From IMG/VR virus record IMGVR_UViG_3300028845_000328: 64,000 bases of DNA; one strand, 5' to 3'. Below are positions 22,596 through 49,830 of the stretch, piece after piece (position 1 is the first letter of the stretch; every line of letters begins with the position of its first letter). The notes below the pieces were generated by a model that was given only the letters and a program-made list of their open reading frames with translations, was not told the DNA's origin and searched no databases. Made by a program: the position numbers and the translations under genes. The stretch comes from a virus.

Positions 22596-23388
22596 TTCGT
22601 TTCCTCTTCCTTTTATTCACATAATCCAAAATGTCTGCAAATAAAGCTTCTGCCAATTTGTTGCGAACTTCTGAATTTGCCATGACTGTATCTGCAACTT
22701 TCTGAAGTGTTTCCACAAATTTCTGTGGTTTGACGGCCGGATATGGCTTCCAATTTGATTCGGACGTAACCATAACAAGATTTTTCGTGACAGAACTTGA
22801 CCCGCCTTTTTCATTTTGTTGTCTAAAAATAACTGTGTTCTTTCCACCAATATATTTATCCCTTACCTGAACAGTAGAAGAAGCATATTTATTTCTGAGA
22901 ATAGTTTGCCCATCCTCCCCTTTCTCGCGATAAGTCCCTGTTATAGTAAGAACTGTCCTAAGCGACTCTTGTGGTTCAGTACCTCCTCCGGTTCCTGAAC
23001 TATTTTCTCTTGGGTTCATCGGTACAATTAAATATTTCTTCCCGTTGGCGCTGATTCGAACTTTTCGGGATTTCATCAGGCTGGCAACTATATCAAATTG
23101 CGGTCTCCCATCTTCTACTACCTTTTCGTAATTTTTGTTTCCCTTCGTCGGCTGATAGTAAATTTGGAAACCCAGCCTATTACGTTTGACTACGATTTGA
23201 CCATTTTTCAGATATTGAGCGCCCCACCAACCAAGACCGCCATCGTGAACCCTAACTCCGGATCGCTTTCCTGCCAAAAACTCCCATTTGTTTTTTATTC
23301 CTACAGCTTCTGAAAAAAGAAGTCCCCAGAACCGTCTGAAATCGTTCGGATTTGTGCTTACCCTTGGGAGAATATCAGCTATGTTCAT
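22588..23388 (-). CDS. Neck / tail completion protein
   Basis: Position and basic composition; KYLIVPM pattern seen in Twort-like neck proteins. Confidence 0.5.
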   Translation of the reverse strand: MNIADILPRVSTNPNDFRRFWGLLFSEAVGIKNKWEFLAGKRSGVRVHDGGLGWWGAQYLKNGQIVVKRNRLGFQIYYQPTKGNKNYEKVVEDGRPQFDIVASLMKSRKVRISANGKKYLIVPMNPRENSSGTGGGTEPQESLRTVLTITGTYREKGEDGQTILRNKYASSTVQVRDKYIGGKNTVIFRQQNEKGGSSSVTKNLVMVTSESNWKPYPAVKPQKFVETLQKVADTVMANSEVRNKLAEALFADILDYVNKRKRKRNG

Positions 23389-26126
23389 GTTTTTTTCTTA
23401 TATTTTGCGCTAAATTCTTTGATCGCCTGAGATGTTTTTGCTTGACTTGTTTTTTCCTTTGTGGTATTTTCAGAAATAGAGGAAGGGGAAGTCGTCTTGG
23501 ACGTTGAGTTTCGGGGGGAATTTCCCACTGTTACGTCCCCAACCTCGCCTTTTTGCTTGAACATTGTCTTTGGAACAAAGTCATTTCCTTTATTTCTAAC
23601 TTCTTCCACATAGAAAAATAGGTCTTTAATTGCCTTTTCATATCTTATCGTTTCAAGCCCCTGATGGGATTTTCCAACAGAATAAATTCTATTAGGATTT
23701 CCAATTATTTCAGGAATTTTTTGGAAATCTTCCTTTTTGACAGGTAACTGTCCTCTTAATTTTTCACGTCTTTCATTGCCATGCGAATTAAGAATATGTA
23801 TAACTTCATATTTAGTCAATAAATGCGATCCATCGGTTACAATTATTCCAAATTTTTCTTTTAGAAAGTCAGCCTCTTTTTTATCTATTTTTTTGATTAC
23901 TATTTCCTTAGCTGTGTTATCGCTAGAGGAAAAGCATTCATCAACAAAGTTTCTAATTTTTTCCTCAACCTGCCCTACGTTATCTTTTTTTGCGGTAATT
24001 TCAGATACTTCTGACCAACCATCAGCATTCTTCTTGTGTTTTTTCCCATCCGACCATGTATGGATTTCTCCGATATTAGCCTTAGAACGTTTTCTGCCTT
24101 TCAAAAATTCTAAGATGAATATTGCATTCTTGGATTTGAATAATAGCTCCGGTGTCATTGAATCAACTTTCAACTCGCTGAATTTTTTTTTCAGTGAATC
24201 CCTAAAAGCGGAAATCGAATTTATCACTACAGATAGCTTTTCCAGTTCCGTTTCGAGTGACGACTCTCCCTTGGTCGCTATAATCGAGGCTGCGAGTTTC
24301 TTAGCGCTATTTTCATTCAAACTTGTTACTGTGTCCCCAAGATATTTCTGGATAGGTTGTTGAATTTTCTTCAATAGATTTTCAAAGCCAACGGTTGCAG
24401 CTTTTGCAGAATCCTCACCTCCTGAGTATTTTATCGCCTCTCTTTCTACATCACTTTTTCCGGATGAATCTACAGAACCGAAATTGAAAGTTTGCGATTT
24501 GAGAGAAGAAATATACAACTTTACCTGAGAAGGAGTTATTCCTTTTGATTTATTCTGAGAATACCAATTAAATGCTTTTCTTTGAATCGTGCCGTTTTGG
24601 GTGCCGTCATCGTTCAAGCCATATCTTCCTAATACAATGGCAATTGTTTCATTAAGCGATTCTTTTTTCTCTTTTGACCCGTCATTTGAATCATCCTTCT
24701 TACGGATATTGTATTTAGCGTCCGTTCTGAGTAGGTCTTTCAATTCCGGAATAAGATTGTTTAGAGCAATAGTTCCTTTTACATATTCCTGAGATTCTCC
24801 GGTTCTTTGTGCAATTTCCTGTATAGTTTTACCCTGTTTGACCAGTGAGTCGTAAGCCTTTGCATCATCCAACCGTTCGACCTCGCGCCGATTTTTGTTA
24901 GCCGATACCTGTGCCAAAAGCCTGTCTGCTTCAGAATTATATTTTTCTTCAACAACTGGTACAGAAAAGTCGTTCGGGAGCAACCCATCTTTGATTAACT
25001 GTGATACTGCTTCAAACCTATGGTGTCCATCGACTACCCTATATTTCCCATCCGGTCCTTTATCGACCTTGAGTGGTTCCGCAACGTCATAACCATTTGC
25101 AAGAATGGAGTCTTTTATTCCGGAAATTATTTTTTCGTTGAAGTGCTTCTTGTCGGTATATTGCTCAATGGTCGTAATTTCAGAAGCTGGAGCATTTTTA
25201 ACTCTTTTTGAAACTTGCTCTTTCTTTTTTTCTTCGATTTTCTCCTTAATCTTCCTTATTTCATTAGATTTTTTTGTATTTTCGTCTTGACTTGTTTTTT
25301 CTTTTGTGATATTTTTGAATTTAGGGAGAGGGGGAACGTTTCCGGACGAAGGAGAGGGGTTGTTCTCAGGGACAACATCATTAGCTCGCCCCCCGACCCT
25401 TCTTTTATACATCGTCTTAACCGCTAATTCCTTACTTCCTGTCCTTACTTCTTCAACAACAATTAATATATCATCAATCCTTTTTTCATAACGAATTAAA
25501 TTGAGACCTGTTTTACTAAACCCACTTAGAAGTTCTATTTTATCAGGCAATATTAAAATTTCAGGTATTTTTTCAATATCTTCAGATGTTACTGGTAGCT
25601 GACCTCTTGGAATTTCAGTAGAAGCATTCCCATGATCTTTTATTATTTTTCTAACAGTATCATGGTCTATTGAATGTTTATACAATTTTACTTCATTGGC
25701 ATTGACGCCAATCTTTTCTAATATATCCTCTTCTTCTTTTGATATTTTTTTTATATATCTCCGTTTAAATCCACTTTTTACAGATAGTGCATTCTTTATA
25801 AAATCTTCGAATGATTCTCTATCATTAGATTCACTTGCGCTGCCGGAAATAACGGGAGGTTTTTCAGGTGGTTCTTCATTTCTACCACCACGATTAGAAA
25901 GTGCTAAGTTCTCTTTCGGAACGTTTAAAGAAGATACTATTTCATCATCTTTTTTGTTATTTACTACACTGAATTTTGTAGGATGAGATTTGTCATAAGC
26001 AGCTTTCGAATACCAGTATTTCCAGCGTCCATTACCCCACTCACGCTTATAGTATTTTGATCCTTCTACTTGCTGGCCTTTTCGGGCCTTTAGGAATTCT
26101 TTTATTATTTGGAGAGATTCGCCCAT
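23385..26126 (-). CDS. Polyvalent protein: tag - PBECR3-like - ParB-like - TWxDG - PBECR3-like
   Basis: Two HG...RGQLPV..ED..KIPEI...IRYEK...VEEVR...KTM.K domains flank a ParB core VVDGHHRFEA. Confidence 0.75.
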   Translation of the reverse strand: MGESLQIIKEFLKARKGQQVEGSKYYKREWGNGRWKYWYSKAAYDKSHPTKFSVVNNKKDDEIVSSLNVPKENLALSNRGGRNEEPPEKPPVISGSASESNDRESFEDFIKNALSVKSGFKRRYIKKISKEEEDILEKIGVNANEVKLYKHSIDHDTVRKIIKDHGNASTEIPRGQLPVTSEDIEKIPEILILPDKIELLSGFSKTGLNLIRYEKRIDDILIVVEEVRTGSKELAVKTMYKRRVGGRANDVVPENNPSPSSGNVPPLPKFKNITKEKTSQDENTKKSNEIRKIKEKIEEKKKEQVSKRVKNAPASEITTIEQYTDKKHFNEKIISGIKDSILANGYDVAEPLKVDKGPDGKYRVVDGHHRFEAVSQLIKDGLLPNDFSVPVVEEKYNSEADRLLAQVSANKNRREVERLDDAKAYDSLVKQGKTIQEIAQRTGESQEYVKGTIALNNLIPELKDLLRTDAKYNIRKKDDSNDGSKEKKESLNETIAIVLGRYGLNDDGTQNGTIQRKAFNWYSQNKSKGITPSQVKLYISSLKSQTFNFGSVDSSGKSDVEREAIKYSGGEDSAKAATVGFENLLKKIQQPIQKYLGDTVTSLNENSAKKLAASIIATKGESSLETELEKLSVVINSISAFRDSLKKKFSELKVDSMTPELLFKSKNAIFILEFLKGRKRSKANIGEIHTWSDGKKHKKNADGWSEVSEITAKKDNVGQVEEKIRNFVDECFSSSDNTAKEIVIKKIDKKEADFLKEKFGIIVTDGSHLLTKYEVIHILNSHGNERREKLRGQLPVKKEDFQKIPEIIGNPNRIYSVGKSHQGLETIRYEKAIKDLFFYVEEVRNKGNDFVPKTMFKQKGEVGDVTVGNSPRNSTSKTTSPSSISENTTKEKTSQAKTSQAIKEFSAKYKKKT
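23441..23470. repeat. 30-bp direct repeat, copy 1 (28/30 identical to 25286..25315)
   Basis: cttgacttgttttttc[c/t]tttgtg[g/a]tatttt, encoding N(T/I)TKEKTSQ after each PBECR3-like domain. Confidence 0.8.
25286..25315. repeat. 30-bp direct repeat, copy 2
   Basis: See copy 1 at 23441..23470. Confidence 0.8.
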
Positions 26127-26135
26127 TGAGGTATG

Positions 26136-26165
26136 GACGGAAATAGGAAATGTTTACAAAGTCAA
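26136..26165 (-). promoter_or_regulatory. Late-promoter-like motif TTGACT-N17-TTCCGTC
   Basis: 9 nt upstream of an SD-less ATG at 26126. Confidence 0.65.
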
Positions 26166-26331
26166 TGATTTTACGGTTCGTTGATAATCATTTCAACACC
26201 CTCTTTTTTCTTTGGGTCAAAATTTCTAGGGAGTTTTCCGTATTTAGCCTCTTCCTCTTCCATTACTCTATTCCAGTTCTTATCAATCAGTTCAACAACG
26301 TCGATTCTTCCAGGGATTTTTTTTTCTTCGC

Positions 26332-29265
26332 TCATTGAATATTCCTCTTAACCCATTCTGAGTCATGTTCTTGGACGTGTCCATCCTTTTTAGAATAGAG
26401 AATTTTCGGTTTTTCGCCCAATTTTGAATTTCCAGTATCAAATACATGGAATTCATCTACGAGATGAGATACATTGCTAAAAGAATCCGGAATCTTAGGG
26501 TATGAATCCACAATGAAGTTTTCTGGAACATATCGCCCTACTTTTTCCGCTCTTTCGATGGCTCTCGGGATAGCGACTTCTACTGGACAATCCGCGAAAA
26601 GAAGTTGAATATGATAATCCTGTTTTCTGAGTTCAGGGATAATATCAATATATGATTTAGCTTTAGCACCTGTTCCGTCTATTACCAGATTCTTTCTTTC
26701 AGCAATAGCTTGAGCACGGATTTTCTTAACTAAATATGATGATTCCTCATGTGCCATCATGGCTGCCGATCTTACTCTGTCTCTCACAGCAACCCGATAT
26801 TCTGGAATTCGTTCCTTTACTGAATCAGCATCAGCATTCACAAATTTTGTCTTATCAAATCCGATTGAATTAACCATAGAAGATTTTCCTGATGCAGTTC
26901 CCCCCATCATCATTATAACCGTTGGGGTTTCATCTTGAGCAACCGGTTGAACCCTTGAAAGATAACTCTCCATGATTTTATCATGGAGTTTCCTTCTTTC
27001 CGGATTAGGCTCTCCTCCTCCGGATGGGTTACTTGAAAAGTAGGTTTCCCATGTTTCATTTGATAGACCAGCCACTGAGTCATTCCATACCCCTTTCCTG
27101 GGAATGATTTCTGGTGGATTTTCCATCATTGCTTCGGCTTTTGCCACTTCGATTTTTGATTTCATTAAGGAATTACTTTTAATAGATGCTACTGCTTCGA
27201 TCGCTGATGATAATTGCTTTTCAGGAAGTTCTCCGCGTTTTAACGCTTTGAGTGAATTGATCGCTGCGTTTGCCAAGTTCTGACCTGTTTTTAATCCGGA
27301 ATCCAGAGATTCAAGCGCGCTTTTCTTTTCCGCTCTCCCTTTTCTCAAAAGATCCCCGATTTTGTGCTGGAATTCTTTTAGCTTTTTATTTTTATTTATT
27401 GCAAACTGTTTTCTTTCCTTGTCCATACCAACTTTTTTTATCGACTGAGGGATAGATTTTCTTTTTAGATTCTGGACTTTGGCTTTCAATTCAGCAAGTT
27501 TCGAATCTAAATTCCAAAGTTTTTTGAAAGTTGCTGTTGGAAAACCTTTCGGAGTTTGCCCGAAATTCAAGGTCCGCAATGTTTCGGTTAATCGTTCAAC
27601 CTGGTTTTCCTTTTTTGTTTTCTGGTTTTCTGATTTATTCTGTTTCAGTGAGCGGATTGCTTCGACTGCCGGGTTCTGATTTAATAGTTCACTCTCTTGT
27701 AATTTTTCTTTCGGTTTGGCAGTTTTCTTTTTTGCATAGACTGCATCAATTGCCAATACTCTTGCTTTGTAATCAGGATATTTATCCAAAAGACTTGGGT
27801 ATTCCCTCAATACTTTTACTGGGATCGGTGTGCTGTTTTGCATTGCCTTTTCGACCGCTGCCCTATGCTCCGAACGATTCCCACCTGTTTTCTTCGTATA
27901 TTCATTCAAATCAGCTTGATGTGCCGCTTTTAGGTCTGATCCTCCAGGTAACTGCTGCCATGCGTTTTCTGAGACTTTTTTGTACCGATTCCCGTCTGCC
28001 CAAGTCCGAATTTCACCGATCGCTCCCTTTTTCCCCTTTAGGAAATAAATCAAGTGAGTGCCATCATTTATAGGATTGCTTGCTGACTTTGATTTTGCAA
28101 ATGCAAGGTCAGCGGCAAGGAAAAGGAATACACTGCCGGACGGAAGCATGACTTTGATATGATCCTCTACCTTCTCAAGAACTTTTGCGATATGGCCTCG
28201 ATTTACTCGTCCCTCAAGCGGACGTTCTATTCTTACAATATCGCCGGATGTGGCATTTTCTACATTCCACATGTCTTTTCTTTTATCTGGAGGAGTATTT
28301 TGTATCCTTGATCTGGCACGTTCTTTTGCCTGAGATTCGAATTCCTTCCATCTCCCCAATGCTTCAGCCGCTTTTTGTTCGTATGTTTTAGTACTATTCC
28401 CGGAACCAGATTTTTCATCTTTTTTTACTTGTTCATTCTGTTGTGGCGATGATTCGCCTGCTTGTTTTCCTTCAGACACAAGAACCCAGCCAGTAGCTGT
28501 CTTTCTGTGTTTTGACCCGTCTGACCAAGTATGGACTTCGCCAACACCGGCAACTGAAGCAGATTTGTGGAAGAATTTTTTAACTCTTTTAGTTGTATCT
28601 GAATCACTTAACCATTTCTTGAATTGGTCAATCGTCATAGGAATCAGTTCTCCTAAACCTTCCCAGCCATTTTGATAATTTTCTAAGTAGGCATTTTCAG
28701 CTTCATCTTCGGTATTGTAACCGATCATAACCTTATGTTCATCGAATTCACCAGATGAAGGGTTCATTTGGTTTATAACAAATACGATTTCTGATTTTGA
28801 ATTAGGCCCTATGAAACAATCTACATGGTCTCCATCATTGCCAGTAGTTCCCTTGATATACCCATAATGTGAATACATCTTACTTTTCCATTTAATCCCT
28901 TTTGAATCAATGCCGGATCGGAATGAGCCTTTTGGGTTTTCTATTGTAATGTCAAGTCCATGAATTCTGGTATGAGCTTTTTTGTAGTTACCGGCTTCCT
29001 TTTGTCCCTGTGTTGGTGAATGATTTACTTCTGACTTATCGATTATAATTTTTGACTTCATCATTTTCGGGAGTTTTCCAAAATAGTCGTTTAGTTTTGA
29101 TTTAAACTTTTTGTATTTTAAATAACTATTTTTTTGAGATGGGAATCCACCTGGATTTTGTAGTGCCCCACCGTTTGTTACCGTCGCTACATCCGTATTT
29201 CCTAGATTCGCAGTCAGCATAAAATAAAAACCCCGGATTTTACGCCGGGGTTCTCCTTTTTTCAA
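26332..29265 (-). CDS. Polyvalent protein: InPase-like - TWxDG x2 - Zeta-toxin-like P-loop kinase (start uncertain)
   Basis: GNYKKAH...IENPKGS...HYGYIKGT..NDGDHVD...FDEHKV; C-terminal MGGTASGKS...DADSVK...AHEES...VIDGT; the annotated start overlaps the MCP terminator, so the true start may be ATG 29220 or later. Confidence 0.8.
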   Translation of the reverse strand: MKKGEPRRKIRGFYFMLTANLGNTDVATVTNGGALQNPGGFPSQKNSYLKYKKFKSKLNDYFGKLPKMMKSKIIIDKSEVNHSPTQGQKEAGNYKKAHTRIHGLDITIENPKGSFRSGIDSKGIKWKSKMYSHYGYIKGTTGNDGDHVDCFIGPNSKSEIVFVINQMNPSSGEFDEHKVMIGYNTEDEAENAYLENYQNGWEGLGELIPMTIDQFKKWLSDSDTTKRVKKFFHKSASVAGVGEVHTWSDGSKHRKTATGWVLVSEGKQAGESSPQQNEQVKKDEKSGSGNSTKTYEQKAAEALGRWKEFESQAKERARSRIQNTPPDKRKDMWNVENATSGDIVRIERPLEGRVNRGHIAKVLEKVEDHIKVMLPSGSVFLFLAADLAFAKSKSASNPINDGTHLIYFLKGKKGAIGEIRTWADGNRYKKVSENAWQQLPGGSDLKAAHQADLNEYTKKTGGNRSEHRAAVEKAMQNSTPIPVKVLREYPSLLDKYPDYKARVLAIDAVYAKKKTAKPKEKLQESELLNQNPAVEAIRSLKQNKSENQKTKKENQVERLTETLRTLNFGQTPKGFPTATFKKLWNLDSKLAELKAKVQNLKRKSIPQSIKKVGMDKERKQFAINKNKKLKEFQHKIGDLLRKGRAEKKSALESLDSGLKTGQNLANAAINSLKALKRGELPEKQLSSAIEAVASIKSNSLMKSKIEVAKAEAMMENPPEIIPRKGVWNDSVAGLSNETWETYFSSNPSGGGEPNPERRKLHDKIMESYLSRVQPVAQDETPTVIMMMGGTASGKSSMVNSIGFDKTKFVNADADSVKERIPEYRVAVRDRVRSAAMMAHEESSYLVKKIRAQAIAERKNLVIDGTGAKAKSYIDIIPELRKQDYHIQLLFADCPVEVAIPRAIERAEKVGRYVPENFIVDSYPKIPDSFSNVSHLVDEFHVFDTGNSKLGEKPKILYSKKDGHVQEHDSEWVKRNIQ
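29221..29252 (-). terminator. Rho-independent terminator after the MCP gene
   Basis: aaccccgg-N8-ccggggtt stem followed on the minus strand by TTTATTTT. Confidence 0.8.
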
Positions 29266-30821: not shown

Positions 30822-31588
30822 TAGTTTCCTCCCTGAGACGATATTGATTTTAAAAAATATTTATTCGCTTGTTCAGTTAAAACTCCTTTACTTTCGTAAG
30901 TAGTTACATCTGACAGATTTAACTCTCTATTCCTGACCCCTTGTCCTAAAATTGATACGATTTCGTTACGACTCTTGCTGAACTGAGAAACCGGAATATC
31001 ATCAGCTTTTGTCGCAGGAACCTTTACATCCACGGGTTGGCTACCGAATTTATCAAGTTGCGATTTCATAAATTCGATTGTTTTTCCAATCCCAGTAATT
31101 GTTTCAGACATTTTTTTATTCTCTACGATGAGAGCTGCAACTGCCTCATTCTGTGTTTCAACGTCGAGCTTATAAGCCGCGAAAGATTTCTTGAATTCGA
31201 TCATTTCTTCTGATAACTGTTTCCCGTTGCCTTTTCTCATCTCTGCTTCCTCGGCTGGCCCGGAAGGCGTTTCAGGCTCTTTTTTATTCTCTACACCTGC
31301 AAGAGCGCTGGATACTACATCCCAAATCTGCGAACATTGCTCATCTGTGAGATTTTTACTCTTACAGAAAGCCTTAATTGATTCTTCGGTAGCCTGCACT
31401 TCGCCGCCTTCCAGTTTTGCCATTAGTTCGTCAAGAACTGCATCATCAATGTCCGCTTGAGCTGGCTCAGCAGGAGTTTCGTTTGTCCTTTCTTCCGGCT
31501 TTTTCTCTGGTTCAACAGGTTTTCCGTTTTCTGATTTAAAAAAATCTTTCATTTTTTCCATCAGTCCTTCTTTTTTCTCTTTATCCAT
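30821..31588 (-). CDS. Head scaffolding protein
   Basis: Acidic and coiled-coil, between protease and MCP; multiple F-x-K-S sites. Confidence 0.7.
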   Translation of the reverse strand: MDKEKKEGLMEKMKDFFKSENGKPVEPEKKPEERTNETPAEPAQADIDDAVLDELMAKLEGGEVQATEESIKAFCKSKNLTDEQCSQIWDVVSSALAGVENKKEPETPSGPAEEAEMRKGNGKQLSEEMIEFKKSFAAYKLDVETQNEAVAALIVENKKMSETITGIGKTIEFMKSQLDKFGSQPVDVKVPATKADDIPVSQFSKSRNEIVSILGQGVRNRELNLSDVTTYESKGVLTEQANKYFLKSISSQGGN

Positions 31589-32441
31589 TGCGTTCTCCGT
31601 TTTCTATAATCATTTGTGTTGCAAGTTTTTTAGCATAATCACGACCAAAGCCATAGCTCCTGAAATGGTCATAATATAATTCATAATCAACTGTCTGGCC
31701 TGGAATAATTTTTTCTAAAAGTTTTGCCGTTGCCCAGAGTTTATAATCAAGCGATGATGTTATGAATTGGAAAATTCGTTGCTCGGCCTCTTCCGAAATT
31801 TTTTCGAATGGATATTGGATAGCGACAGATTGATCCATTGGTTCTTCATCCAGGAACTCAGTTGCAATGGACGATTTCAGCATTTTAATTTCTGTTTCGC
31901 TGTTAATAGCTTCCCCGGCCGGACAAATTGCAACGTGAGAAATTCGCGCACGGTCATAAGTTTTATCGCCATATTTTGCTACTGTTTCCGGTTTTGGTGG
32001 ATAAAATCCACCTCCTGCACTCGCTTCTAAACCCTCATATCCGGCTTTAAGTAATGGGACGTACGGGGCTATGAATGGATTCTTCGCATTCCACTTGCTT
32101 TGGCAATATAGAGAGTCTCCTTCAATGAAGAATTTTTTTCCAGATGGGATCCCTATAATTGCTTCATTCCCCAACCTTTCATTATTTAATTTTTCTTGTA
32201 TGGAATTCGATTTCTGGAACGGAAGTAACCTGGAATAGTGGTTCCAATCCACAACTGCTTTTTTATTGGAGTAATCAATGTCTTTTTGATTTTTCCAGGC
32301 CTCCGGCAGAATCATTTCGCCTTGAGCGTCACGGGTTGGAGTTGACACTAACATGATAGTATTAAGATAGTCACCATCCCGCTCAACTTCTACGATTGAG
32401 GAACTCTTAATAAAAGGGATAAATTTTGCTTTATCTTGCAC
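31581..32441 (-). CDS. Prohead protease
   Basis: STPTRDAQGEMI...VDWNH...SAGG...SHVAIC pattern (herpes/HK97-like His/Ser fold). Confidence 0.75.
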   Translation of the reverse strand: MQDKAKFIPFIKSSSIVEVERDGDYLNTIMLVSTPTRDAQGEMILPEAWKNQKDIDYSNKKAVVDWNHYSRLLPFQKSNSIQEKLNNERLGNEAIIGIPSGKKFFIEGDSLYCQSKWNAKNPFIAPYVPLLKAGYEGLEASAGGGFYPPKPETVAKYGDKTYDRARISHVAICPAGEAINSETEIKMLKSSIATEFLDEEPMDQSVAIQYPFEKISEEAEQRIFQFITSSLDYKLWATAKLLEKIIPGQTVDYELYYDHFRSYGFGRDYAKKLATQMIIENGERNG

Positions 32442-36386: not shown

Positions 36387-39300
36387 TTGAGTCCGCCTTC
36401 TTCGATTTCAGAAAATTGAACATGATTATTTTGGCTCTCGCTCCTGATTTTTTAATTTCCTTTACGCCAAGCATTTCAAGAACTTCGGCAATATGATTTG
36501 TTACAATTTCACTTAGGGAAAACTTTACTCTCTTCGCCTCCGTTTCCTTCAATTCTTTTTTAAATTTCTCGATATATTCATCTTTCTTCGTAGTTTGTAA
36601 TTCTCGCGATTGCTCTAATAGCCTATCAGCTTCATCTTGAGATTTTTTGACAAATGCGCGTGCAGTCTCTACCGCATTAAAGGATTTCCTCTCCAATTGC
36701 TGAGTTTTGATACTTATTTTTGTTTTTAGAGCAGAAATATCTTTCTTAATTTTGTCAATTTCTGCTTTATTCTCTTTCAGGAAATCAGCTTCATCGTCAT
36801 AACGCCACCAACTATTTCCTACTTCCTTTCCAGATTCTTCATATTTATCAGGGTTCTTTATGTATTCCATGAATAAAGGGACTTCATCCAGTGATTCCTT
36901 TAGTGAAGTGCTTCTACTATCGAGAAGGTTTTCAGCTTCATCTAGATCATCTAAAATTCCTTGAACAGCAAACGCCCTTGACTGAGCATCCTTTGCTTGT
37001 GCTCTGATCCGCCCGCTTTCTTCCTGCAATACCAATTTTGCCTTTCTCTCAGGGTCTTTAATAATATCATATTTCAACTCGTCTGGGTTTATTTCAGATA
37101 CATCGATTGCAGGGGATCCAGTGTTTTTAAAAATATCATTAATCCGAGATATTTTTTCTCCCTGTTTTTGGTATAATTTTGAATCAATCGAATCCTCCAT
37201 GAGAACATCTACCCACATTGTTTTCTTGAGCTTATTTCCTGGTCTGTGAGCGCGTCCGCGTTTTTGAACTTCGGTTGTTGGATTCCAGTCGATCGAAGTA
37301 TTATAGGCTATCCCGGTATATTTATTGAGGGAGACACCTTCCTTGATTACATCAGTTCCAAGAATAATCCTGCATTTGCCATCCGGATTATTGAAATCTT
37401 TTGTGATTTCTGTAAACCTGGAGAGACCTTTCGCTTTCATTGAAGAATCCCTTGCAGGTGTAGTTTTGGTTTTTGTATCCATTATTTCGATAGCATCACC
37501 AGGAATTCCTTGGTCAACCAGATATTGTTTTATTTTCTGTATATGCTCCACACCCTTCGGCATGAACATGATTTGACCTGGGATAGGTTCGCCTGGTCTT
37601 AGCTCCCGATGCTTATAGTATAATCCTGCAATCGAATCTGCAATAAATTTTAGTTTTGGGGAACGCTCAACTACATCGGCAGTTCCAAGATGGTTAATAT
37701 CAGAGAATTTTTTCCAAATATCTGCTTTTCCGGGTTTCACCAATGCAGGAGATATTCCCATCATTTGTTGCGTACCAATTGAAACTAAAGGCGCTGCACC
37801 GGATGGTTTTCCAGAAGGGTCTTTTTCATCATACATTTCTTCAAGACGATCTCTCATAAGTTTCTGTTCTTCTGATAGAGGCAATACGACAGCCTTCATT
37901 TTTAATTCTGGGCGCTCTACTCCATTTTCATCCCCTTGCTGAAAATCGAAATACTCCCTTACCAAAGATTGGAAGGCGTGACCATTTTTGAAATTCCGGA
38001 CAACTTGCTTTTGCTTTATTTCCCCATTCCCCTCAATTGTATTCTCCCATGTAGTTTCAACAAATGTAGCAATGAAATCCCTGATATTGTAAATCCCCAT
38101 GTCTCGAAGACGTTTTTTTGCTACGATGGAAAGAAGAGAATATACCTGTAATGGATTATTTGTAAATGGTGTAGCTGTTAGTAAAAGTACATTTCTGTCT
38201 TGATTTTCTTTAAGTATGTGTTGAGCTGCAAGATATAGTTTTATCCCCCTTGCGGATGGGCTTCCACTTGTGATCCCACTAAACTCATTTGCCTTTACGG
38301 AGGCTTCTTCTTCATCAGAACTAAGCTTATTGACTCCTCCCAATTGGTCTTTCTTCTTTATATCAACAAAGATATTGTTAAAATTGTGAGCTTCGTCCAC
38401 TGTTATCATGTCGAATCCAGCGTCATCAAATTTCAGAGCAGCTTCAGTTCCAATAGTTGCCACGCCAACCAATTCTTGTATCTGTTCGTCGTCCTGGGCT
38501 TTACCGCGCTTCCCTTTTTCATTGTCTGGGTTGACTATCTGATCTTTTAGGTCATTTGTTAACTCATTGAATCGATTTTCAGAAAAACCAAATCTCTGGA
38601 ACGCATCATAAGACATTATCGTTACAGTGCCATCATCAACTTCGAATTTTCCAGAGTTAGATTTCAATTGGTCATTGAGTTCTGGAGTCCCGATCATTTG
38701 TGATTTTACATTCGGGAAGCGTTCCTTGAATTCAAGTGCCCATTTTTGGAGAACAGATGTAGGTACCACTATCAGAGGTTTTTTAGCTTTACCTGTTTGG
38801 ATAGAAGACACGTTGGCCATCATACCAGTCCATGTTTTCCCGAGTCCGACTTCATGGGTCGCGCATCCAACACCTTTTGTCATATATTCCCCGACAAATC
38901 GCATCTGAATACCTCTGGGGTCTTGATCCTTATCCTTATATTTTCGATTCATCCCTTCCAATACAACTGGTATTTTATTCGAATCAATCTTGGCTACTGA
39001 ATTGAACTGGTCATTCCATTTCTCTGAGAGTTCTTTTTGGTCTTCGTCGGAAAGAATTTCATTTATAAATTGTTTGAAAAGTTTCTCAGCCTGAATCTTG
39101 CGTTCTTTCCTTCTTCTCTGATTCTCCTCAGCGTCGCGACCTGTGACCTTCTCGCCCAATGTGTAGGATTTAATATCCATTGCCGAGCAATCAGTCCCCT
39201 GGAAATATTCCCTTGGCAATCCACCTTCGTAATGAGACAGACCTCTTGAATATCCATAGTCCCGATAGACAGGAGTTCCCAAAACATAATCGAAGAATTT

Positions 39301-42180
39301 TTCAGTTATTTTTTTTCCATCTTGAAAAACCAAAGATTGAACAAATGGTTCAAGTGGAGACAAAACAAGTTTTGACATGTCTATCTTCTTTGGAGTAGCC
39401 GATTCGAGAGCTTTTTTTTGCCTATGATATTGCTCTTCTCCATACTTGTTGATAATGCTATCCTTTGATTTTTCAAGCGCAAATAGCTTGTCTTTGATAT
39501 TCCCGGATTGGTAGATGTATGCCGGCACGAAATCAAACTCTCCATTTCTTCCTTCTACCAGAGCCATCCGATCCTTATCAAAAGGGAGATTTTTTATTCT
39601 ACCGATTGGATCCATGTTTCTGACAATCTCAATATCTTTTTCATCGAAAGACTTATTGAATTTCTTATTAAATTCAGCCTGTGTGTAGAGATTTCTAGGG
39701 TCTATTATTGATGAAGAGTCTTGGATTTTTTCCTTCTTAATTGCCTTAGTCGATTTCTCAGCATTTTTGTTCCCCTTAAGACCTTCTGAAATGGAATTCT
39801 TTGTTTCCTGACTCATCGGTTCTTTAGGTTTTGGCAATTCTAAAGCTATAAAATCTTCAACGTTTCCTTTGATAAATGTTTCTTCCCTTCCAAATCGATT
39901 AATCCTTTTTTCTTCAGAACCAATTATATGCTCCGGATTTTCTTGAAAATATTTCCCTCCGAAAACCAACTTATTATCCTTCTTATTAGAACTGTTTTTC
40001 CTTAAGATAATAATATCGGTTCCAATCCCAGTATTTCCGAACGAACCTTCAGGGAGACGATACGATTCCAAAAGCTCAGCCTTCTCGAAGATTTCCTTTT
40101 TCCAGTTTTCCTCTCCTGCATTCATGAAACTGGACGGTACAACGTAGGCTAAAACTCCACCTTCTTCAAGAGTATCAAGGCCCCTAGAAATGAAATAGTG
40201 TTCATATCTTTTATACCCCTTTCCTTCAATCGCTTTATATCTTCCAGTCATCGCTCCATAAGGAGGGTTTCCAGCAACTAGCCCGTATTTTTTACCAGAA
40301 TATTTATTCCCTAGTGACCGATTTTTCTTATCGATAAACATGGTTTCAAAGGCATTATCTGAAACATTTGCATCTGGGTGAAGAATTCTTGCAATCTGAT
40401 AGGCAGTGTTATCATCAGGATTGTATTCAAGCATATCCCAGCGGTAATTCGTATTTTCGGCAAATCGTCCTATTCCTGCGGCTGGCTCAAGAGCATCCAC
40501 GTCTGGTTTAACATAACGAGATACTATTTCCTGCATTTTTGAAATTACCTTCCTCGGAGTAAAGAACTGGTATAACATCCCGCGAGTAGCTTCCGCATCT
40601 TTATTTGTAGTCTGACCGCCAGAACCCTCATACCTCCGAAGGATTTCCTTTTGTTCATCAGTAATTTGGTATGGAGGCGTAGAAGATAAAATTTGCTTGC
40701 ATTTTTCGTTGATTTCGGCCTGTTTTTTTTGCGACCACTTTTGTTTCACACCAGAAACAGCGTCAATTGCAGAATCGTTTATTTTTTCAGGCAAAGAACG
40801 GTCATCTTTTTTAGCGTTCTGATTTCCTTTCATTGCCTCAGATCGAGACTCAGGATGTGGTACGAGGTAATTATTGTTGTTGACAGAATTCCACCATTGG
40901 TATAAATTACTTTTTAGGGGAGAAAGTTTCCGGCCTTGATTAGTCGGGGGAGCGCTCCCCTTATTTATTATCTCTGATTCAACGAACTCATTGTCATAAA
41001 AGTAATCACCATTATTATTTTCACGGATGATTATTCTGATAAATTCATCTTTTCCATTAATTCTTACCTTTGAACTATAATTATGATAAGCAATAATATT
41101 TTTGTCTTCATTTTTCATATTGGATTCACTCCACAAATAAGTCCCTTTTTGCAATAGTTCTGGTAATTGCGGGATGACACTTATTGTTCGGTTATCAGCA
41201 CTGTGAAAGAATATTTCCTTGAATCCCTTAGTTGAAAATTTGACTTTCCTGCCATCTTTCGTTATAGGAGTTTCGTCTCTTATTTTATCGAATTCATCTT
41301 TTGATATTTTCAGCCTGTCCTTAACATTCAAATTCGGAGGCAACCAACTGGAATCTATGATAACCGGTTCTTGACCAAGTAGTTCTTTCTTTTTTTCTTC
41401 TTTATCTTCTGGTTGCTGTAAGTAATAATTGGATTTTCCAAGCCTTATTCGTCCGTCGCCTCCAGGTTTCCCAAATCCGATTCCAGAATCCCTGCGTATG
41501 CTATCAGGTTTTCCAGCGTTACCGTTTTGTTCTCCATTTTGCAGATTCTTTCCAGTTGCGTAGATACCCACTCCTGACTGTAGTTTTTGAGTTCCAGAAA
41601 CTGGCTCTCCTGTATTTCCTTGTATAGCTGGTCCGATAATTTCTGATCCATTATTTTGCCTCTTCCCATAAATATGATAGAGCTTTCGGAAAATTGACGA
41701 TTTGTAACCACTTTCGGAAGATGTTTTCGATTCTGTTTTTGCTATAACAGCAGTGGCGTAATTTCCGGTCGTTTCGTCCATTTCTTTTGCAACCGGAGTA
41801 TTTTTGGCAACATTTGCAAGCTTTTCCTCTTCAGCAAACCTTGCATCGTATTTTTCCTTGAACTCAAAGTATTTTGTAAAATGTCTTGTCCATTCAGGCA
41901 AGCTGATTCCATCTGTACCGATATTTTTTTTCTTGTACTCATATATGGCTACATGCTCCGGACTACTCGATTCTCCTATGTTGAAATATTGAAGTAGCTT
42001 ACTAATTAATGTTTGGTGGTTTGATTGATGAGTCGCTGGGTGCTCGCTATCATATTCTGTCTTTGTATACCAGTATTTCCAACGGTTATTTTTCCATTCC
42101 CGTTTGTAATATTTGGCTCCCTGCCTTTGTTCGCCTTTGCGACTCTTCAAAAATTCTTTTATCGTCTCATTTGCATTCAT
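36379..42180 (-). CDS. DarB-like polyvalent protein: tag - LPD3-like - adenine MTase - SNF2 helicase
   Basis: LEPAAGIGRF, GNPPYG, HEVGLGKT, DEAH, EVQKRGRAHR; upstream VKFSTKGFKE...GDYFYD LPD3-like domain. Confidence 0.85.
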   Translation of the reverse strand: MNANETIKEFLKSRKGEQRQGAKYYKREWKNNRWKYWYTKTEYDSEHPATHQSNHQTLISKLLQYFNIGESSSPEHVAIYEYKKKNIGTDGISLPEWTRHFTKYFEFKEKYDARFAEEEKLANVAKNTPVAKEMDETTGNYATAVIAKTESKTSSESGYKSSIFRKLYHIYGKRQNNGSEIIGPAIQGNTGEPVSGTQKLQSGVGIYATGKNLQNGEQNGNAGKPDSIRRDSGIGFGKPGGDGRIRLGKSNYYLQQPEDKEEKKKELLGQEPVIIDSSWLPPNLNVKDRLKISKDEFDKIRDETPITKDGRKVKFSTKGFKEIFFHSADNRTISVIPQLPELLQKGTYLWSESNMKNEDKNIIAYHNYSSKVRINGKDEFIRIIIRENNNGDYFYDNEFVESEIINKGSAPPTNQGRKLSPLKSNLYQWWNSVNNNNYLVPHPESRSEAMKGNQNAKKDDRSLPEKINDSAIDAVSGVKQKWSQKKQAEINEKCKQILSSTPPYQITDEQKEILRRYEGSGGQTTNKDAEATRGMLYQFFTPRKVISKMQEIVSRYVKPDVDALEPAAGIGRFAENTNYRWDMLEYNPDDNTAYQIARILHPDANVSDNAFETMFIDKKNRSLGNKYSGKKYGLVAGNPPYGAMTGRYKAIEGKGYKRYEHYFISRGLDTLEEGGVLAYVVPSSFMNAGEENWKKEIFEKAELLESYRLPEGSFGNTGIGTDIIILRKNSSNKKDNKLVFGGKYFQENPEHIIGSEEKRINRFGREETFIKGNVEDFIALELPKPKEPMSQETKNSISEGLKGNKNAEKSTKAIKKEKIQDSSSIIDPRNLYTQAEFNKKFNKSFDEKDIEIVRNMDPIGRIKNLPFDKDRMALVEGRNGEFDFVPAYIYQSGNIKDKLFALEKSKDSIINKYGEEQYHRQKKALESATPKKIDMSKLVLSPLEPFVQSLVFQDGKKITEKFFDYVLGTPVYRDYGYSRGLSHYEGGLPREYFQGTDCSAMDIKSYTLGEKVTGRDAEENQRRRKERKIQAEKLFKQFINEILSDEDQKELSEKWNDQFNSVAKIDSNKIPVVLEGMNRKYKDKDQDPRGIQMRFVGEYMTKGVGCATHEVGLGKTWTGMMANVSSIQTGKAKKPLIVVPTSVLQKWALEFKERFPNVKSQMIGTPELNDQLKSNSGKFEVDDGTVTIMSYDAFQRFGFSENRFNELTNDLKDQIVNPDNEKGKRGKAQDDEQIQELVGVATIGTEAALKFDDAGFDMITVDEAHNFNNIFVDIKKKDQLGGVNKLSSDEEEASVKANEFSGITSGSPSARGIKLYLAAQHILKENQDRNVLLLTATPFTNNPLQVYSLLSIVAKKRLRDMGIYNIRDFIATFVETTWENTIEGNGEIKQKQVVRNFKNGHAFQSLVREYFDFQQGDENGVERPELKMKAVVLPLSEEQKLMRDRLEEMYDEKDPSGKPSGAAPLVSIGTQQMMGISPALVKPGKADIWKKFSDINHLGTADVVERSPKLKFIADSIAGLYYKHRELRPGEPIPGQIMFMPKGVEHIQKIKQYLVDQGIPGDAIEIMDTKTKTTPARDSSMKAKGLSRFTEITKDFNNPDGKCRIILGTDVIKEGVSLNKYTGIAYNTSIDWNPTTEVQKRGRAHRPGNKLKKTMWVDVLMEDSIDSKLYQKQGEKISRINDIFKNTGSPAIDVSEINPDELKYDIIKDPERKAKLVLQEESGRIRAQAKDAQSRAFAVQGILDDLDEAENLLDSRSTSLKESLDEVPLFMEYIKNPDKYEESGKEVGNSWWRYDDEADFLKENKAEIDKIKKDISALKTKISIKTQQLERKSFNAVETARAFVKKSQDEADRLLEQSRELQTTKKDEYIEKFKKELKETEAKRVKFSLSEIVTNHIAEVLEMLGVKEIKKSGARAKIIMFNFLKSKKADSNG

Positions 42181-46451: not shown

Positions 46452-47458
46452 TACAATCCTCTAATTCCACGCTGAAATACAAGATACTCAATCCCGGATT
46501 CATGTGCAGCCATTATCACACCAGCGTTATATGCCATAGCGGATTCAGTGAATGCAAATCTTTTAAAATTTCTATTCAACCTCATTGTTAATAGTTCTGA
46601 TTCCTTCCCATTAAGTATCTGTAAATACTCATCTTCAGACATTTTACCTTTTTCTACAAGCGAATAAAGGTCAGGGAAGGCCATTTCTGACTGCAATTCT
46701 TCTACCGACTTATTGTCTCTTATCGAATCAGCTATCATGTCACCCCACATTTTTCGCAGGTAAATGTAAGGCTTTCCTCCTCTCTTGGGTTGGCCGTTCT
46801 CATAAATAATATTTCCATTTTCATCTCGGTCATATACTGCTATCCAATCTGCTGAATTAGATTTTGACCATGTTTCTGCAAGATTTCGAATCCTGTTTTT
46901 GTCGAGCTTGTCCTCCATCAATTCCGGATCATCCAGGCCAACTCCAAGCTTAAACGTAAAAGCCCTATCGTAATCTTCAATTCCCATTGAATTCACTGTT
47001 TCCACTGGCAGTTTTAGCGCACCCGTCAGATAACCAGACAAATATCCCAGAAAAGTTCCAGTGTCTCCTATTTCTTTATAAACTGGATTCCAGTCATTTT
47101 CCAGATACCTAAATAGCCAGTCATCATATTCCTCTGAATCAAATGTTTTGATTTTGTTTTCAGGAGGTATGTCGCCTGAACCAGAATTATCTATTTGCAA
47201 ATCAACTTTTGGCCTACCTTCCGTACGCGGTTGTTTATCAAATAGCTTTTGTAAAAATTTAGGAAGGTGTCTCTTCCCCCAACTAAAGAGACCTTTTCTG
47301 ATGTATAAATCAGATGCCTTGATACTGATTTTATCAGGGCCAAGCGCCTGATATTCAATCCATTTCAAGTAGTCGGCAACCAATAGCTGGAATTGCCGAC
47401 CTGCTCTCGATTTTAAGAACGGACTTTCCTTAGAGTCCCAGGGATTGGAATAGATCAT
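46451..47458 (-). CDS. MuF-like minor head protein lacking the C-terminal Cys/His module
   Basis: RNFKRFAFTESAMAYNAG resembles the MuF RIAxTE...N.G motif; ends about 20 aa later; near the portal. Confidence 0.6.
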   Translation of the reverse strand: MIYSNPWDSKESPFLKSRAGRQFQLLVADYLKWIEYQALGPDKISIKASDLYIRKGLFSWGKRHLPKFLQKLFDKQPRTEGRPKVDLQIDNSGSGDIPPENKIKTFDSEEYDDWLFRYLENDWNPVYKEIGDTGTFLGYLSGYLTGALKLPVETVNSMGIEDYDRAFTFKLGVGLDDPELMEDKLDKNRIRNLAETWSKSNSADWIAVYDRDENGNIIYENGQPKRGGKPYIYLRKMWGDMIADSIRDNKSVEELQSEMAFPDLYSLVEKGKMSEDEYLQILNGKESELLTMRLNRNFKRFAFTESAMAYNAGVIMAAHESGIEYLVFQRGIRGL

Positions 47459-48081: not shown

Positions 48082-49830
48082 TTATTGATTTTTGTGTTCC
48101 GCAATCGCTCTTGCCGCGATAGATTGCTCTGGGTCATCGTGGACTGAAGATGTTTCGTTTTCTCCACCAATAAAATCATCATCTCCCCACGGCAACTGTT
48201 GCTCATTCCCAGAATTCAATTCGTCTGGCAGTTGTTGGGTTTGCTGAGTATTCTGATCGACCGTGAAAACCTTTGATATTTCCTGCGATACATATTGATT
48301 TCCTACCAACATGCCAAGTTTTCTGAACTTTTTGGCTTCATCCTCGGTAATGATACCATTCCTGAGTGCTTCATTCGCCTGGTCTTGCATTGTTGGCAAA
48401 TCATTTTCTTTTAGAATTGAATCAATATTCCTATAAGTTCGGAATTGTTTTTCATGAAGGTCGGCTTTTTTTGATTCATCGTTTGTTTTTACTCCTACAA
48501 AAACGATTTTTGAAGGTAACTCCATCTCTGGGTCTATAATTTCATTTAAACAATCCTCATGAAATGTCATTATAGACCCGTGGATTCGATCACGAGAGAA
48601 GTTTTGCCTTCCATCCATTGAAGGCTCCGATAAAGAGCTGGATTGATTCAGACGTAAACCAAGTTGAGCTGGGTCCATTCCATGTCGAGCAATGATCAAA
48701 GAAGCTGTCATTTGCAGTAATTTATCAAATGCAAAATCATCTTCGACATCTAAATTATGAACCTGCATATCCCCAACACCGAACATCATCGGCAACCTGA
48801 AATTTGGTCTAGGGCCGTAAAATTGATTTTCCCATTGAAGTTCGAGGCGCTCTTGATCCGCTTTCGTGAGCTGGTTCTTGGTTGTTATTATTGCCCTTGG
48901 TGGATTTCGGTGATTGAAACGGTCTGCATTCCATCGCAAGGAGTTTACCAATGCCATTATCTCAGTAATGCACGATTCAATCGGAGAATATCCAAAACCA
49001 CGCATCCGAACATCCGAAAGATTATTCTTATGACGATAGATAATTCTTCCTGCTTCGAAAACTTCAGTTACCGAATTTTGAATCATTTGCACGTGAGTGA
49101 TTCTTTTGTCTCCACGGTACCCTTTTCTTGGATCGACTCTATAGATACTCCCTGGGTCGATATACCGAATATCGCAAAGTTTTCCAACCCTGTTATAGGT
49201 TTTTAGATAGGCTATCGCATCAATGGCAAGTGTGTCACGAGTAGCCATTTCAAGCACTTCTCCCATCCTGTCACGTTCTCTCCAGTCATGTGTAGATTTG
49301 TCTCCCATAATCAGCAGGATATTTGCGATATTCTCAAACTCATTCATTTGTTCTTTTGTTGGTCTCTCATCTTTCCGCTTTAGTTTTATTTCAAAGCCTG
49401 GGTCTTCCTGATATTTCGCATACATAGAGCAATCGTCTGAAACGATCTGGTGAATTGCCCCAATTAGAGAGGAAGAGTAGGAAATATTCCGCAAATCATC
49501 CGTGGTTATCCGGAAAATTGGTCTGAGTTGGATTCCTTGATTATACATAATGAGCGATTCGTCATTGTATAACGGATTTTTCCTATCCTTAGCTGATTTC
49601 AGGATTTCGTACATTTGGTTATTCAGGTCAATCGCCTGACTAAAAGCTTGCCTTGCTGGTTCATAAAATGCTGATTTCCGGAATAATTCTATCGGCATGG
49701 TTTCCGGGTCACCGGATTGTGTTTTTTCGATTGGAGTTGCATTTCCGCTTACAAGCTTTTCTCGGAATTCTTTAGGTATTCGGTTTAAGCGATTTTTTTC
49801 GTAGTTTGCACCACGCGGTCTTCCAGCCAT
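48082..49830 (-). CDS. Portal protein
   Basis: IRYIDPGSI, GFGYSPIE, FDKLLQMTASLIIARHGMDPAQLG; follows terL. Confidence 0.9.
   Translation of the reverse strand: MAGRPRGANYEKNRLNRIPKEFREKLVSGNATPIEKTQSGDPETMPIELFRKSAFYEPARQAFSQAIDLNNQMYEILKSAKDRKNPLYNDESLIMYNQGIQLRPIFRITTDDLRNISYSSSLIGAIHQIVSDDCSMYAKYQEDPGFEIKLKRKDERPTKEQMNEFENIANILLIMGDKSTHDWRERDRMGEVLEMATRDTLAIDAIAYLKTYNRVGKLCDIRYIDPGSIYRVDPRKGYRGDKRITHVQMIQNSVTEVFEAGRIIYRHKNNLSDVRMRGFGYSPIESCITEIMALVNSLRWNADRFNHRNPPRAIITTKNQLTKADQERLELQWENQFYGPRPNFRLPMMFGVGDMQVHNLDVEDDFAFDKLLQMTASLIIARHGMDPAQLGLRLNQSSSLSEPSMDGRQNFSRDRIHGSIMTFHEDCLNEIIDPEMELPSKIVFVGVKTNDESKKADLHEKQFRTYRNIDSILKENDLPTMQDQANEALRNGIITEDEAKKFRKLGMLVGNQYVSQEISKVFTVDQNTQQTQQLPDELNSGNEQQLPWGDDDFIGGENETSSVHDDPEQSIAARAIAEHKNQ
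49687..49717. repeat. 31-bp direct repeat, copy 1 (in the portal 5' end)
   Basis: ttctatcgg[c/t]atggtttccgggtcaccggat, 30/31 identical to 50006..50036; palindromic core TCCGG-N4-CCGGA. Confidence 0.85.

Follow-up and report, generated by a model that had tools for sequence, protein, structure and literature searches.

Here, we report a candidate capsid cargo-loading system in IMG/VR virus record IMGVR_UViG_3300028845_000328, in a stretch of 64,000 nucleotides (the window) that covers the late region of an LE1-like Leptospira myophage. A short motif, F-x-K-[SAG], recurs in the head proteins of this phage, where it is very probably the cleavage site of the prohead protease encoded at 31581..32441. 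It also recurs in three giant polyvalent proteins of 913, 977 and 1933 amino acids (aa), in which it forms part of a larger unit. We infer capsid targeting and prohead-protease processing of cargo of the kind known from phage T4, here within an HK97-type system, in which the polyvalent proteins would be packaged, cleaved and injected; we give this reading about an even chance. The claim for the head proteins is strong and that for the cargo is plausible.

Prohead protease and its probable sites in head proteins

The 286-aa protein is, judged by its modelled structure, a prohead serine protease of the HK97/T4 gp21/assemblin fold with predicted activity. In an AlphaFold2 (AF2) model, with a predicted local distance difference test (pLDDT) score of ~80 over residues 14-175, the top three Foldseek matches are T4 gp21 (5JBL; probability 1.0, template modelling (TM) score 0.58-0.62), and herpesvirus proteases come next in the list. 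Four residues (K12, H68, S141 and K189) do not vary across an alignment of 12 sequences, one of them the protease of Kayvirus GH15, which passes Pfam Peptidase_S78. The residue after K12 and after K189 is always S, A or G, and K12↓S13, K77↓S78 and K189↓S190 (the arrow marks a predicted cut) are conserved candidate self-processing sites. The window protease itself matches no Pfam family at E up to 10 and does not reach the Peptidase_S78 gathering score; its pairwise match to the Kayvirus protease is weak (E=0.001). The gene order protease-scaffold-major capsid protein (MCP), with overlapping stop and start codons, is found here, in LE1, in clade B (prophages of pathogenic Leptospira) and in Kayvirus.

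The MCP is ~25% identical to Herelleviridae capsid proteins, and in the alignment around its predicted maturation cut the K49 and F51 columns are invariant from the window phage through to Kayvirus GH15. A further 20 more distant MCPs have K↓[SAGT] at the equivalent position, about 15 of them in the form φ-x-K↓A (φ, hydrophobic residue). Scaffolds orthologous to that of the window contain 4-10 such sites in LE1, clade B, L049, L052, L053 and Kayvirus, with seven φ-x-K-S sites in the Kayvirus protein. An earlier reading of this DNA, made from the letters without database searches (the sequence-only reading), had listed motif instances in head and polyvalent proteins; all of them are present in the proteins named, and the scaffold has a sixth copy, AFCKS, that had gone unlisted.

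Enrichment was evaluated with 2000 within-protein shuffles, using F.K[SAG] as the motif unless stated. The 255-aa scaffold has 6 matches against 0.24 expected (P<0.0005) and the protease 2 against 0.25, and the five head proteins pooled have 11 against 1.29 (P<0.0005). The three polyvalent proteins have 10 against 3.43 (P=0.002), and with the tighter form F[LI]K[SAG] they have 6 against 0.44 (P<0.0005), compared with 1 against 1.79 in the rest of the proteome. The other 61 proteins (13,973 aa) show no significant excess (11 against 10.65), nor does the tail block (3 against 2.03). A higher frequency than in tail and early proteins was what the sequence-only reading predicted, and enrichment is indeed confined to the head and polyvalent proteins. 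The caveats on these numbers include that the motif was defined post hoc, after inspection of the data, and that 5 or 6 of the polyvalent instances are paralogous copies of one repeated module and thus not independent. A protein-by-protein scan covered six further relatives, spanning pathogenic-Leptospira prophages, Kayvirus and one high-GC phage. Protease and scaffold are the only proteins to reach P<0.01 in L021, L026, L028, L035 and L042; in L033 it is the protease alone, the scaffold open reading frame (ORF) of L033 not having been called and hence not scored. Given the protease fold and catalytic residues, the invariant K↓S column of the MCP and the scaffold and protease enrichment in relatives, the proposal that the motif is the cut site of this protease in head proteins holds up well.

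Candidate sites are also present in two other head-module proteins. The portal site is conserved as EFRK↓S in the LE1 portal. The 335-aa protein had been labelled MuF-like, a label that finds no support: it has no Pfam match, and its PHROGs family, phrog_3759, is of unknown function. Its sequence around the site, KESPFLK↓SRAGR, has a counterpart in LE1 (L001, ~10470-10520), where KESPFLR↓SKAGR lies in frame upstream of the annotated gp12 ATG. The start of LE1 gp12 is probably annotated too far downstream, judging by the reading frame (a TTG lies upstream, and P1, the residue before the cut, is Arg there).

Two further observations concern single proteins. MCP residues 1-31 (30728-30821, minus strand) consist of a basic stretch and ~25 hydrophobic residues, resembling a signal anchor, ahead of K49↓S50; this leader is conserved in the MCPs of clade A (LE1, L017, L018, L020) and absent in clade B and Kayvirus, and Met32 is an alternative internal start. 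Beyond the head and cargo proteins, F[LI]K[SAG] occurs once, as HEFLK↓GKKRVSC at residue 18 of a 121-aa ORF (11451-11816, minus strand), followed by Cys-rich sequence and no beta mini-domain of the kind described below; the ORF may encode a further small tagged protein, or the match may be due to chance.

The genes considered here are all on the minus strand, in the order small and large terminase, portal, small head proteins, 1933-aa protein, protease, scaffold, MCP, 977-aa protein, 913-aa protein and tail sheath, which is also the order in LE1. The head operon contains the polyvalent genes: two come shortly after a terminator-like hairpin that follows the MCP gene, and the third lies between the portal and protease blocks. 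Coordinates are collected in Table 1.

Tag units in the polyvalent proteins and beyond

The three large proteins combine several unrelated conflict-type domains, including PBECR, InPase and LPD by Pfam, which places them among the polyvalent proteins; the 1933-aa protein, whose gene stands among head genes, has an N6-adenine methylase and a C-terminal superfamily 2 (SF2) helicase. At Pfam E<=0.01 no embedded peptidase (MPTase or assemblin-like) is found in any of the three, a trait that roughly one polyvalent protein in three has and that the class does not require (Iyer et al. 2017; PMC5512222). The ORF of the InPase-Zeta protein runs to 29265 (977 aa, TTG start), where the hairpin at 29255-29226 overlaps its TTG. 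The true start is likely Met16 (MLTAN...) at 29220, giving 962 aa, since LE1 starts likewise and a database record has the 962-aa form.

At their N-termini the 913-aa and 1933-aa proteins share 68% identity across 44 aa, and the two proteins have no similarity elsewhere; the same is true of their LE1 counterparts gp26 and gp15, in which this type A tag is kept and only P1', the residue after the cut, varies freely, among A, S and G. The leader ends in a head-type consensus, EFLK↓A or EFLK↓S, comparable to EFAK↓S in the MCP, PFIK↓S in the protease and YFLK↓S in the scaffold, all of these being predicted sites. Three internal units, one in the 913-aa and two in the InPase-Zeta protein, consist of F-x-K-[SG] followed after 6-9 residues by a mini-domain of the pattern GE(I/V)(H/R)TW(S/A)DG...K...GW. 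Among LE1-like phages, 17 of 17 non-redundant mini-domains have F-x-K-[SAG] upstream at a fixed distance. An AF2 model of the internal module of the 913-aa protein, built with 121 homologues, has a low-confidence helix with the Lys as its last residue, followed by a linker and a three-stranded meander with pLDDT of ~90. In this model (window 23937-24164) the mini-domain carries two conserved Trp, on strands 1 and 3, as in WW domains. The sequence-only reading had treated the four residues as the tag; the motif does recur, but in the polyvalent proteins it is not free-standing and belongs to this leader and beta-mini-domain module.

The position of the motif at N-termini and domain borders, also part of that reading, is borne out. 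The InPase domain (87-219) is flanked by K70↓S71 and K234↓S235, and K702↓S703 precedes the Zeta domain (769-946). In comparison with LE1, one BLAST block begins at a motif (residue 68 of the 977-aa protein) and another ends at one (residue 674 of the 913-aa protein); LE1 gp26 stops right after its motif, and the window 913-aa protein continues with a mini-domain and a second PBECR3 copy. At the other end of the methylase-helicase, a motif lies 3-10 residues from the C-terminus in all clade-A orthologues of the 1933-aa protein (LE1, L006, L017 and L020). Motif codons differ between copies (TTT/TTC, TTA/TTG/CTA/CTG, AAA/AAG, TCA/TCG/AGT/GGG/GGC/GCC), which indicates selection for the amino acid sequence and not for the DNA.

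The residue at P3, two before P1, varies between clades in the direction that a shared protease predicts. In clade A the head-site P3 is mostly Phe and the tag P3 is Phe in 14 of 14 cases; in clade B it is mostly Ile, with Ile in 3 of 3 tags; and in L049 it is mostly Leu, with Leu in 3 of 3 tags. In this small sample of three clades, the covariation suggests that head sites and tags are read by the same enzyme.

The InPase-Zeta protein begins differently, with an N-terminus in register with the mature N-arm of the MCP. In 6 of 6 clade-A phages this N-terminus is the best local match of the MCP arm among the other proteins of the locus (scores 36-78), and in L017 and L020 the two share an identical 11-mer. 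The case for N-arm mimicry comes from this conservation across phages, in which the mimic, as aligned, tracks the MCP sequence. A near-copy of the mature MCP N-arm also opens the C-terminal part of the proteases of GH15 (L004/L035, residues ~160-190) and L042, SFLTGHGTSPDTQVDAGAL compared with SFQTGYGITPDTQIDAGAL, directly after FMK↓S or LTK↓A. There, the arm mimic may be the route of the protease itself into the prohead, and its occurrence in Kayvirus and L042 proteases suggests that arm-like peptides are a general entry into such proheads.

A profile of 48 positions built from the internal units and searched at E<=0.001 against 1.84 billion representatives matches 366 protein clusters. Outside the LE1 group, 163 of 182 non-redundant modules (90%) have K-[GAS] 5-9 residues before the mini-domain. 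P3 is L, I, F, V or M in 159 of the 162 modules with enough upstream sequence, and P2, between P3 and P1, is Glu in about half. The Lys is present in 143 of 147 aligned modules, with a small residue next in 93%. The commonest form, [DE]-L-E-K-[GA], equals the MCP sites ELEK↓A of related head modules. About half of the carriers have their first module no more than 40 residues from the N-terminus, and five family members start directly at the P1' residue, MA(N/K)KAxIGE, as expected if the mature form starts there. The carriers' domains are of effector type: Zeta, InPase, ADP-ribosyltransferase (ART), NUDIX, RelA/SpoT, PBECR1 and topoisomerase IB.

Existing resources contain little of this unit. 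The tag segments have no Pfam match even at E up to 10, and Pfam covers the units of none of the 366 clusters; in PHROGs they hit only two families, both of unknown function. A fold search of the PDB with the mini-domain gave no significant match, the best being a 34-residue phiKZ capsid chain (8y6v_I, E=0.6), followed by WW domains. A word-based homologue search with residues 1-55 of the 913-aa protein returned only the query, an uninformative outcome. With the module as tblastn query, 50,697 phage records yielded LE1 and Chryseobacterium phage MA9V-3 and nothing else, which means that the module is absent from every well-studied virion proteome.

The genomic context of the carriers was read in six cases (L046, L049, L051, L052, L053 and MA9V-3), and in all six the tagged proteins lie in or beside the head module. 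The scaffold, or protease-scaffold fusion, of these loci has 7-25 φ-x-K-[SAGT] sites; shuffles in five of them give 9-25 against 2-6 expected (P<0.005), the sites of L049 having been counted only. Where the MCP is readable, in 4 of the 6, it has a K↓A or K↓T site.

Several observations on single loci stand beside these. In L051 (16018-17778) and MA9V-3 (L054, 14715-16313) protease and scaffold are fused into one protein of 530-590 aa with 21-25 φ-x-K-[SAGT] sites against 4-6 expected; MA9V-3 is a cultured phage and has at least 4 tagged proteins encoded just upstream of the fusion gene. Proteins of 680-770 aa in L021 (5330-7609), L031 (5351-7669) and L002 (15871-17925) have an N-terminal (H/Q/L)ILK↓(G/S) tag and a variant of the mini-domain (GH.S...DG..W.K), with a methyltransferase or LPD1 domain at the C-terminus. 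From these features they are tagged-cargo candidates in LE1-like prophages of pathogenic and intermediate leptospires. Downstream of the MCP gene, the cargo proteins measure 977 and 913 aa here, 885 and 859 in LE1, 739 and 866 in L006, 451 in L017 and 613 in L018, between constant flanks formed by the MCP gene and a downstream gene of 250-266 aa (window 23385-29265 compared with L005, L006, L017 and L018). By this comparison of gene content, the cargo region 3' of the MCP gene is a hot spot of module gain and loss among close relatives.

Table 1 Features of the head and cargo genes in the window, with predicted sites and their basis.
Feature	Coordinates	Strand	Site or content	Basis
Portal	48082-49830	-	Candidate site LFRK↓S at residues 50-53 (49672..49683)	Pfam Phage_portal, phrog_12
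335-aa head-module protein	46451-47458	-	Candidate site PFLK↓S at residues 14-17 (47408..47419)	phrog_3759
DarB-like polyvalent protein, 1933 aa	36379..42180	-		Pfam LPD3 (9e-19), Eco57I/N6_Mtase, SNF2-rel_dom, Helicase_C
N-terminal tag type A, 1933-aa protein	42037..42180	-	EFLK↓S, predicted cut K12↓S13
C-terminal leader and site, 1933-aa protein	36382..36423	-	FNFLK↓SKKADSNG, no mini-domain after
Prohead serine protease, 286 aa	31581..32441	-	Catalytic His68, Ser141	AF2 fold and catalytic residues
Scaffolding protein, 255 aa	30821..31588	-	Six F-x-K-S sites at residues 16, 74, 132, 173, 203, 245
MCP, 513 aa	29280..30821	-		phrog_752; 73% identical to LE1 MCP
Predicted MCP maturation cut	30672-30686	-	K49↓S50 (EFAK↓SF)	Conserved alignment column
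Terminator-like hairpin, gap between MCP gene and first cargo gene	29226..29255	-	11 bp stem and T-run	Annotated terminator at the same place in LE1
InPase-Zeta polyvalent protein	26332..29220	-		Pfam InPase 87-219 (1e-58), Zeta_toxin 769-946 (1e-26)
InPase-Zeta N-terminus	29146..29220	-	MLTAN..., in register with mature MCP N-arm SFNAN...	Local alignment
Candidate cuts, InPase-Zeta protein (977-aa numbering)		-	K70↓S71, K234↓S235, K391↓S392, K410↓G411, K702↓S703
Internal tag module 1, InPase-Zeta protein	28447..28590	-	FFHK↓S and beta mini-domain
Internal tag module 2, InPase-Zeta protein	27922..28065	-	YFLK↓G and beta mini-domain
PBECR3-ParB(HTH)-PBECR3 polyvalent protein, 913 aa	23385..26126	-		Pfam PBECR3 (two stretches, E=2.5e-35), HTH_ParB
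Candidate cuts, 913-aa protein		-	K13↓A14, K676↓G677	Motif positions
N-terminal tag type A, 913-aa protein	25983..26126	-	13-aa leader, EFLK↓A, aromatic-rich hairpin (KYYKRE...WKYWY)
Internal tag module, 913-aa protein	23976..24119	-	EFLK↓G and beta mini-domain, ahead of second PBECR3 copy

Proposed mechanism and rival explanations

In the mechanism that we propose, the protease would cut after Lys at hydrophobic(P3)-x-Lys(P1)↓Ser/Gly/Ala(P1'), with Phe as P3 in this clade. It would break the scaffold into peptides at six sites, trim itself and remove 49 residues from the MCP, and it would probably also trim the portal and the 335-aa head protein. The address unit would consist of a leader helix ending in F-L-K, a flexible linker with S, G or A and a small three-stranded, Trp-rich beta mini-domain. 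Leaders, or in the InPase-Zeta protein the N-arm mimic, would take the polyvalent proteins into the assembling prohead, where the protease would remove the leaders, cut the 913-aa and 977-aa proteins at their internal units and trim both ends of the methylase-helicase. The products would be four modules (InPase, Zeta-type kinase, PBECR3-ParB and the second PBECR3) and a nearly full-length methylase-helicase, and at infection these pieces would exit the capsid together with the DNA. Because of the terminator behind the MCP gene, less cargo than capsid protein would be made. LE1 has an 80-nm capsid for 73.6 kb, compared with 65 nm for the 48-kb LE3 and LE4 (PMC6078989); as a rough estimate, for which negative-stain sizes are too coarse to lean on, the LE1 head has some spare volume.

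Several points weigh against this mechanism as far as the cargo is concerned. Packaging, cleavage and injection of the cargo are predictions from sequence. The broadest form of the motif, [FLIMVYW].K[SAG], is not significantly enriched in the polyvalent proteins (34 against 26.8, P=0.09), and some instances lie inside folded domains, such as IFEKAE at residue 698 of the 1933-aa protein, in the methylase domain, which is probably structural. The N-arm match in this window taken by itself is not significant (36 against a null mean of 34 from shuffles), the P3 covariation spans three clades, and the leader helix is predicted with low confidence. The six genomic contexts have no base-rate control, and head modules of the K↓S type may simply be common. 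A complex prediction of the protease catalytic domain (residues 1-180) with an N-terminal tag gave a median score of 0.01 and 0.50 in one run, with controls not run, and speaks neither in favour of binding nor against it.

The near-invariant K-[GAS] step could equally have a structural role in the module, and this is the core of the main, though rather unlikely, alternative: the protease site would exist only in head proteins, and φ-x-K-[GAS] in the polyvalent proteins would be a structural part of a helix-plus-beta-meander adaptor, for example a WW-like module by which effectors bind a partner from host or phage. Any likeness to scaffold sites would then be coincidental, and the proteins might or might not be packaged. 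The constancy of the Lys and the small residue across many different phages, the fixed distance between motif and mini-domain, as for one folding unit, and the weak, non-significant fold matches to WW domains all fit an adaptor, and a four-residue motif is easily matched in Lys-rich proteins. An adaptor does not predict, however, that P3 follows the head-site preference of each clade, that the P4-P1' consensus is that of MCP maturation sites or that family members begin exactly at P1'. Leader and site also occur without a mini-domain at the conserved C-termini of the 1933-aa protein and LE1 gp26, and AF2 places the Lys at the end of the helix, before the linker and outside the confident fold.

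A different objection, which we consider improbable, is that the polyvalent proteins are expressed late and stay unpackaged, acting in the producing cell or in the tail or baseplate, with any processing done by their own or by host proteases. RefSeq annotates LE1 gp25 as 'tail protein', the 913-aa gene abuts tail genes, LE1-like phages have no virion proteome, and Iyer et al. see embedded peptidases as the normal means of processing (PMC5512222). Against this, no peptidase domain was detected in the three proteins, their genes sit between those of portal, protease, scaffold and MCP, and homologous effector-type carriers adjoin portals and head modules elsewhere; two of the three share an N-terminal unit like T4 internal proteins, and the third copies the MCP N-arm. 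That the recurrence is due to chance, or to something at the DNA level such as a short, recombination-prone stretch that shuffles modules and encodes F-L-K, is barely credible, even though the motif was chosen post hoc and the module borders coincide with homology breakpoints between phages, as would recombination sites: the shuffle tests used the rest of the proteome as a control, and the enrichment was replicated in unrelated relatives. Chance was rejected on those shuffle tests, and a recombination signal was rejected as the motif codons vary freely between copies.

Known systems and implications

The reading of the polyvalent proteins as prohead-processed cargo has its closest parallel in T4, whose internal proteins share a cleaved leader (PMC12373910) and whose cargo is injected and counters host defence (PMC12373910, PMC9026906). 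As with IPI-III and Alt of T4, unrelated cargo here shares a short N-terminal leader whose end is a predicted consensus site for the prohead protease of the phage itself. The scaffold core is cut, by prediction, at many copies of the cargo's site, and the protease has the gp21 fold. The T4 site is (L/I)-x-Glu↓, whereas here it is φ-x-Lys↓small; a beta mini-domain follows the leader here and is lacking in T4; the unit here is also internal and would split polyproteins; and the cargo here would consist of giant multi-domain enzymes.

In phage P1, DarB requires its N-terminus to be encapsidated, and the first 30 residues are enough for targeting to the capsid (PMC9024508). Like DarB, the 1933-aa protein has an LPD domain, an N6-adenine methylase and an SF2 helicase and is encoded in the head gene block. 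The P1 Dar proteins have no recognisable N-terminal consensus (PMC9024508), whereas two cargo proteins here share one that contains the protease motif, and the P1 MCP is cut after Glu120, indicating a different protease specificity. Polyvalent proteins as a class are predicted to be packaged, with processing assigned to embedded zincin-like or assemblin-like peptidases (PMC5512222). The window proteins have the same repertoire (PBECR3, DdrB-type ParB, InPase, Zeta kinase, LPD3 and the methylase-helicase dyad) and the same need to release domains (PMC5512222), but we propose processing in trans, by the prohead protease, at a tag undescribed in that paper, in Pfam or in PHROGs. In phiKZ and SPN3US, one protease motif is common to the MCP, scaffold-like proteins and packaged ejection proteins, and propeptides are removed (PMC10052503, PMC7411985). 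The arrangement of one motif on MCP, scaffold and cargo is alike, but the cut there is after Glu, the protease and MCP are of a different lineage, and theirs was shown by mass spectrometry, whereas ours is predicted.

Head modules of Herelleviridae (A511, Twort, phage K) resemble that of the window in the order protease-scaffold-MCP and in a homologous MCP (phrog_752) whose Lys↓Ser site occupies the same column, and their scaffold and protease are likewise rich in φ-x-K-S; they differ in that the window protease is below any Pfam threshold. HK97 gp5 is cut at Lys103↓Ser104, and Loessner and Scherer reportedly found in 1995 that 23 residues are removed from the A511 capsid protein by a cut between Lys and Ser. 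Our literature search returned no citable statement on the Herelleviridae Lys↓Ser cut, which is supported here by the MCP alignment. The part of Kayvirus that was examined shows no tagged cargo proteins.

Compared with these systems, what appears to be new is the proposed processing in trans by an HK97-type Lys-specific protease, a tag unit absent from domain libraries and the apparent mimicry of the MCP arm. We put forward only tentatively, as a possibility somewhat short of an even chance, that the unit is a general, sequence-recognisable capsid-cargo address of phages with HK97-type Lys-specific proteases and that polyvalent proteins of this lineage are true polyproteins. Two cultured phages carry the unit and allow direct tests, namely LE1, whose host Leptospira biflexa has shuttle vectors, and Chryseobacterium phage MA9V-3.

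Injected phage proteins are known for a handful of model phages only, by mass spectrometry, and a sequence tag would allow them to be predicted from genomes. If the proposal is true, the effectors that hundreds of uncultured phages package and inject could be listed with a single profile; it already picks out Zeta kinases, ADP-ribosyltransferases, NUDIX, RelA/SpoT, PBECR RNases, InPases, topoisomerase IB and DarB-like methylase-helicases. The tag would also be portable, for loading foreign proteins into such capsids, and mimicry of the MCP N-arm would be a second, independent loading route, used by InPase-type cargo and, in Kayvirus-like phages, by the protease. Polyvalent proteins of this lineage would then be end-to-end fusions of individually tagged cargo, separated inside the capsid by the prohead protease, which would explain how domains are released from polyvalent proteins that have no peptidase domain.

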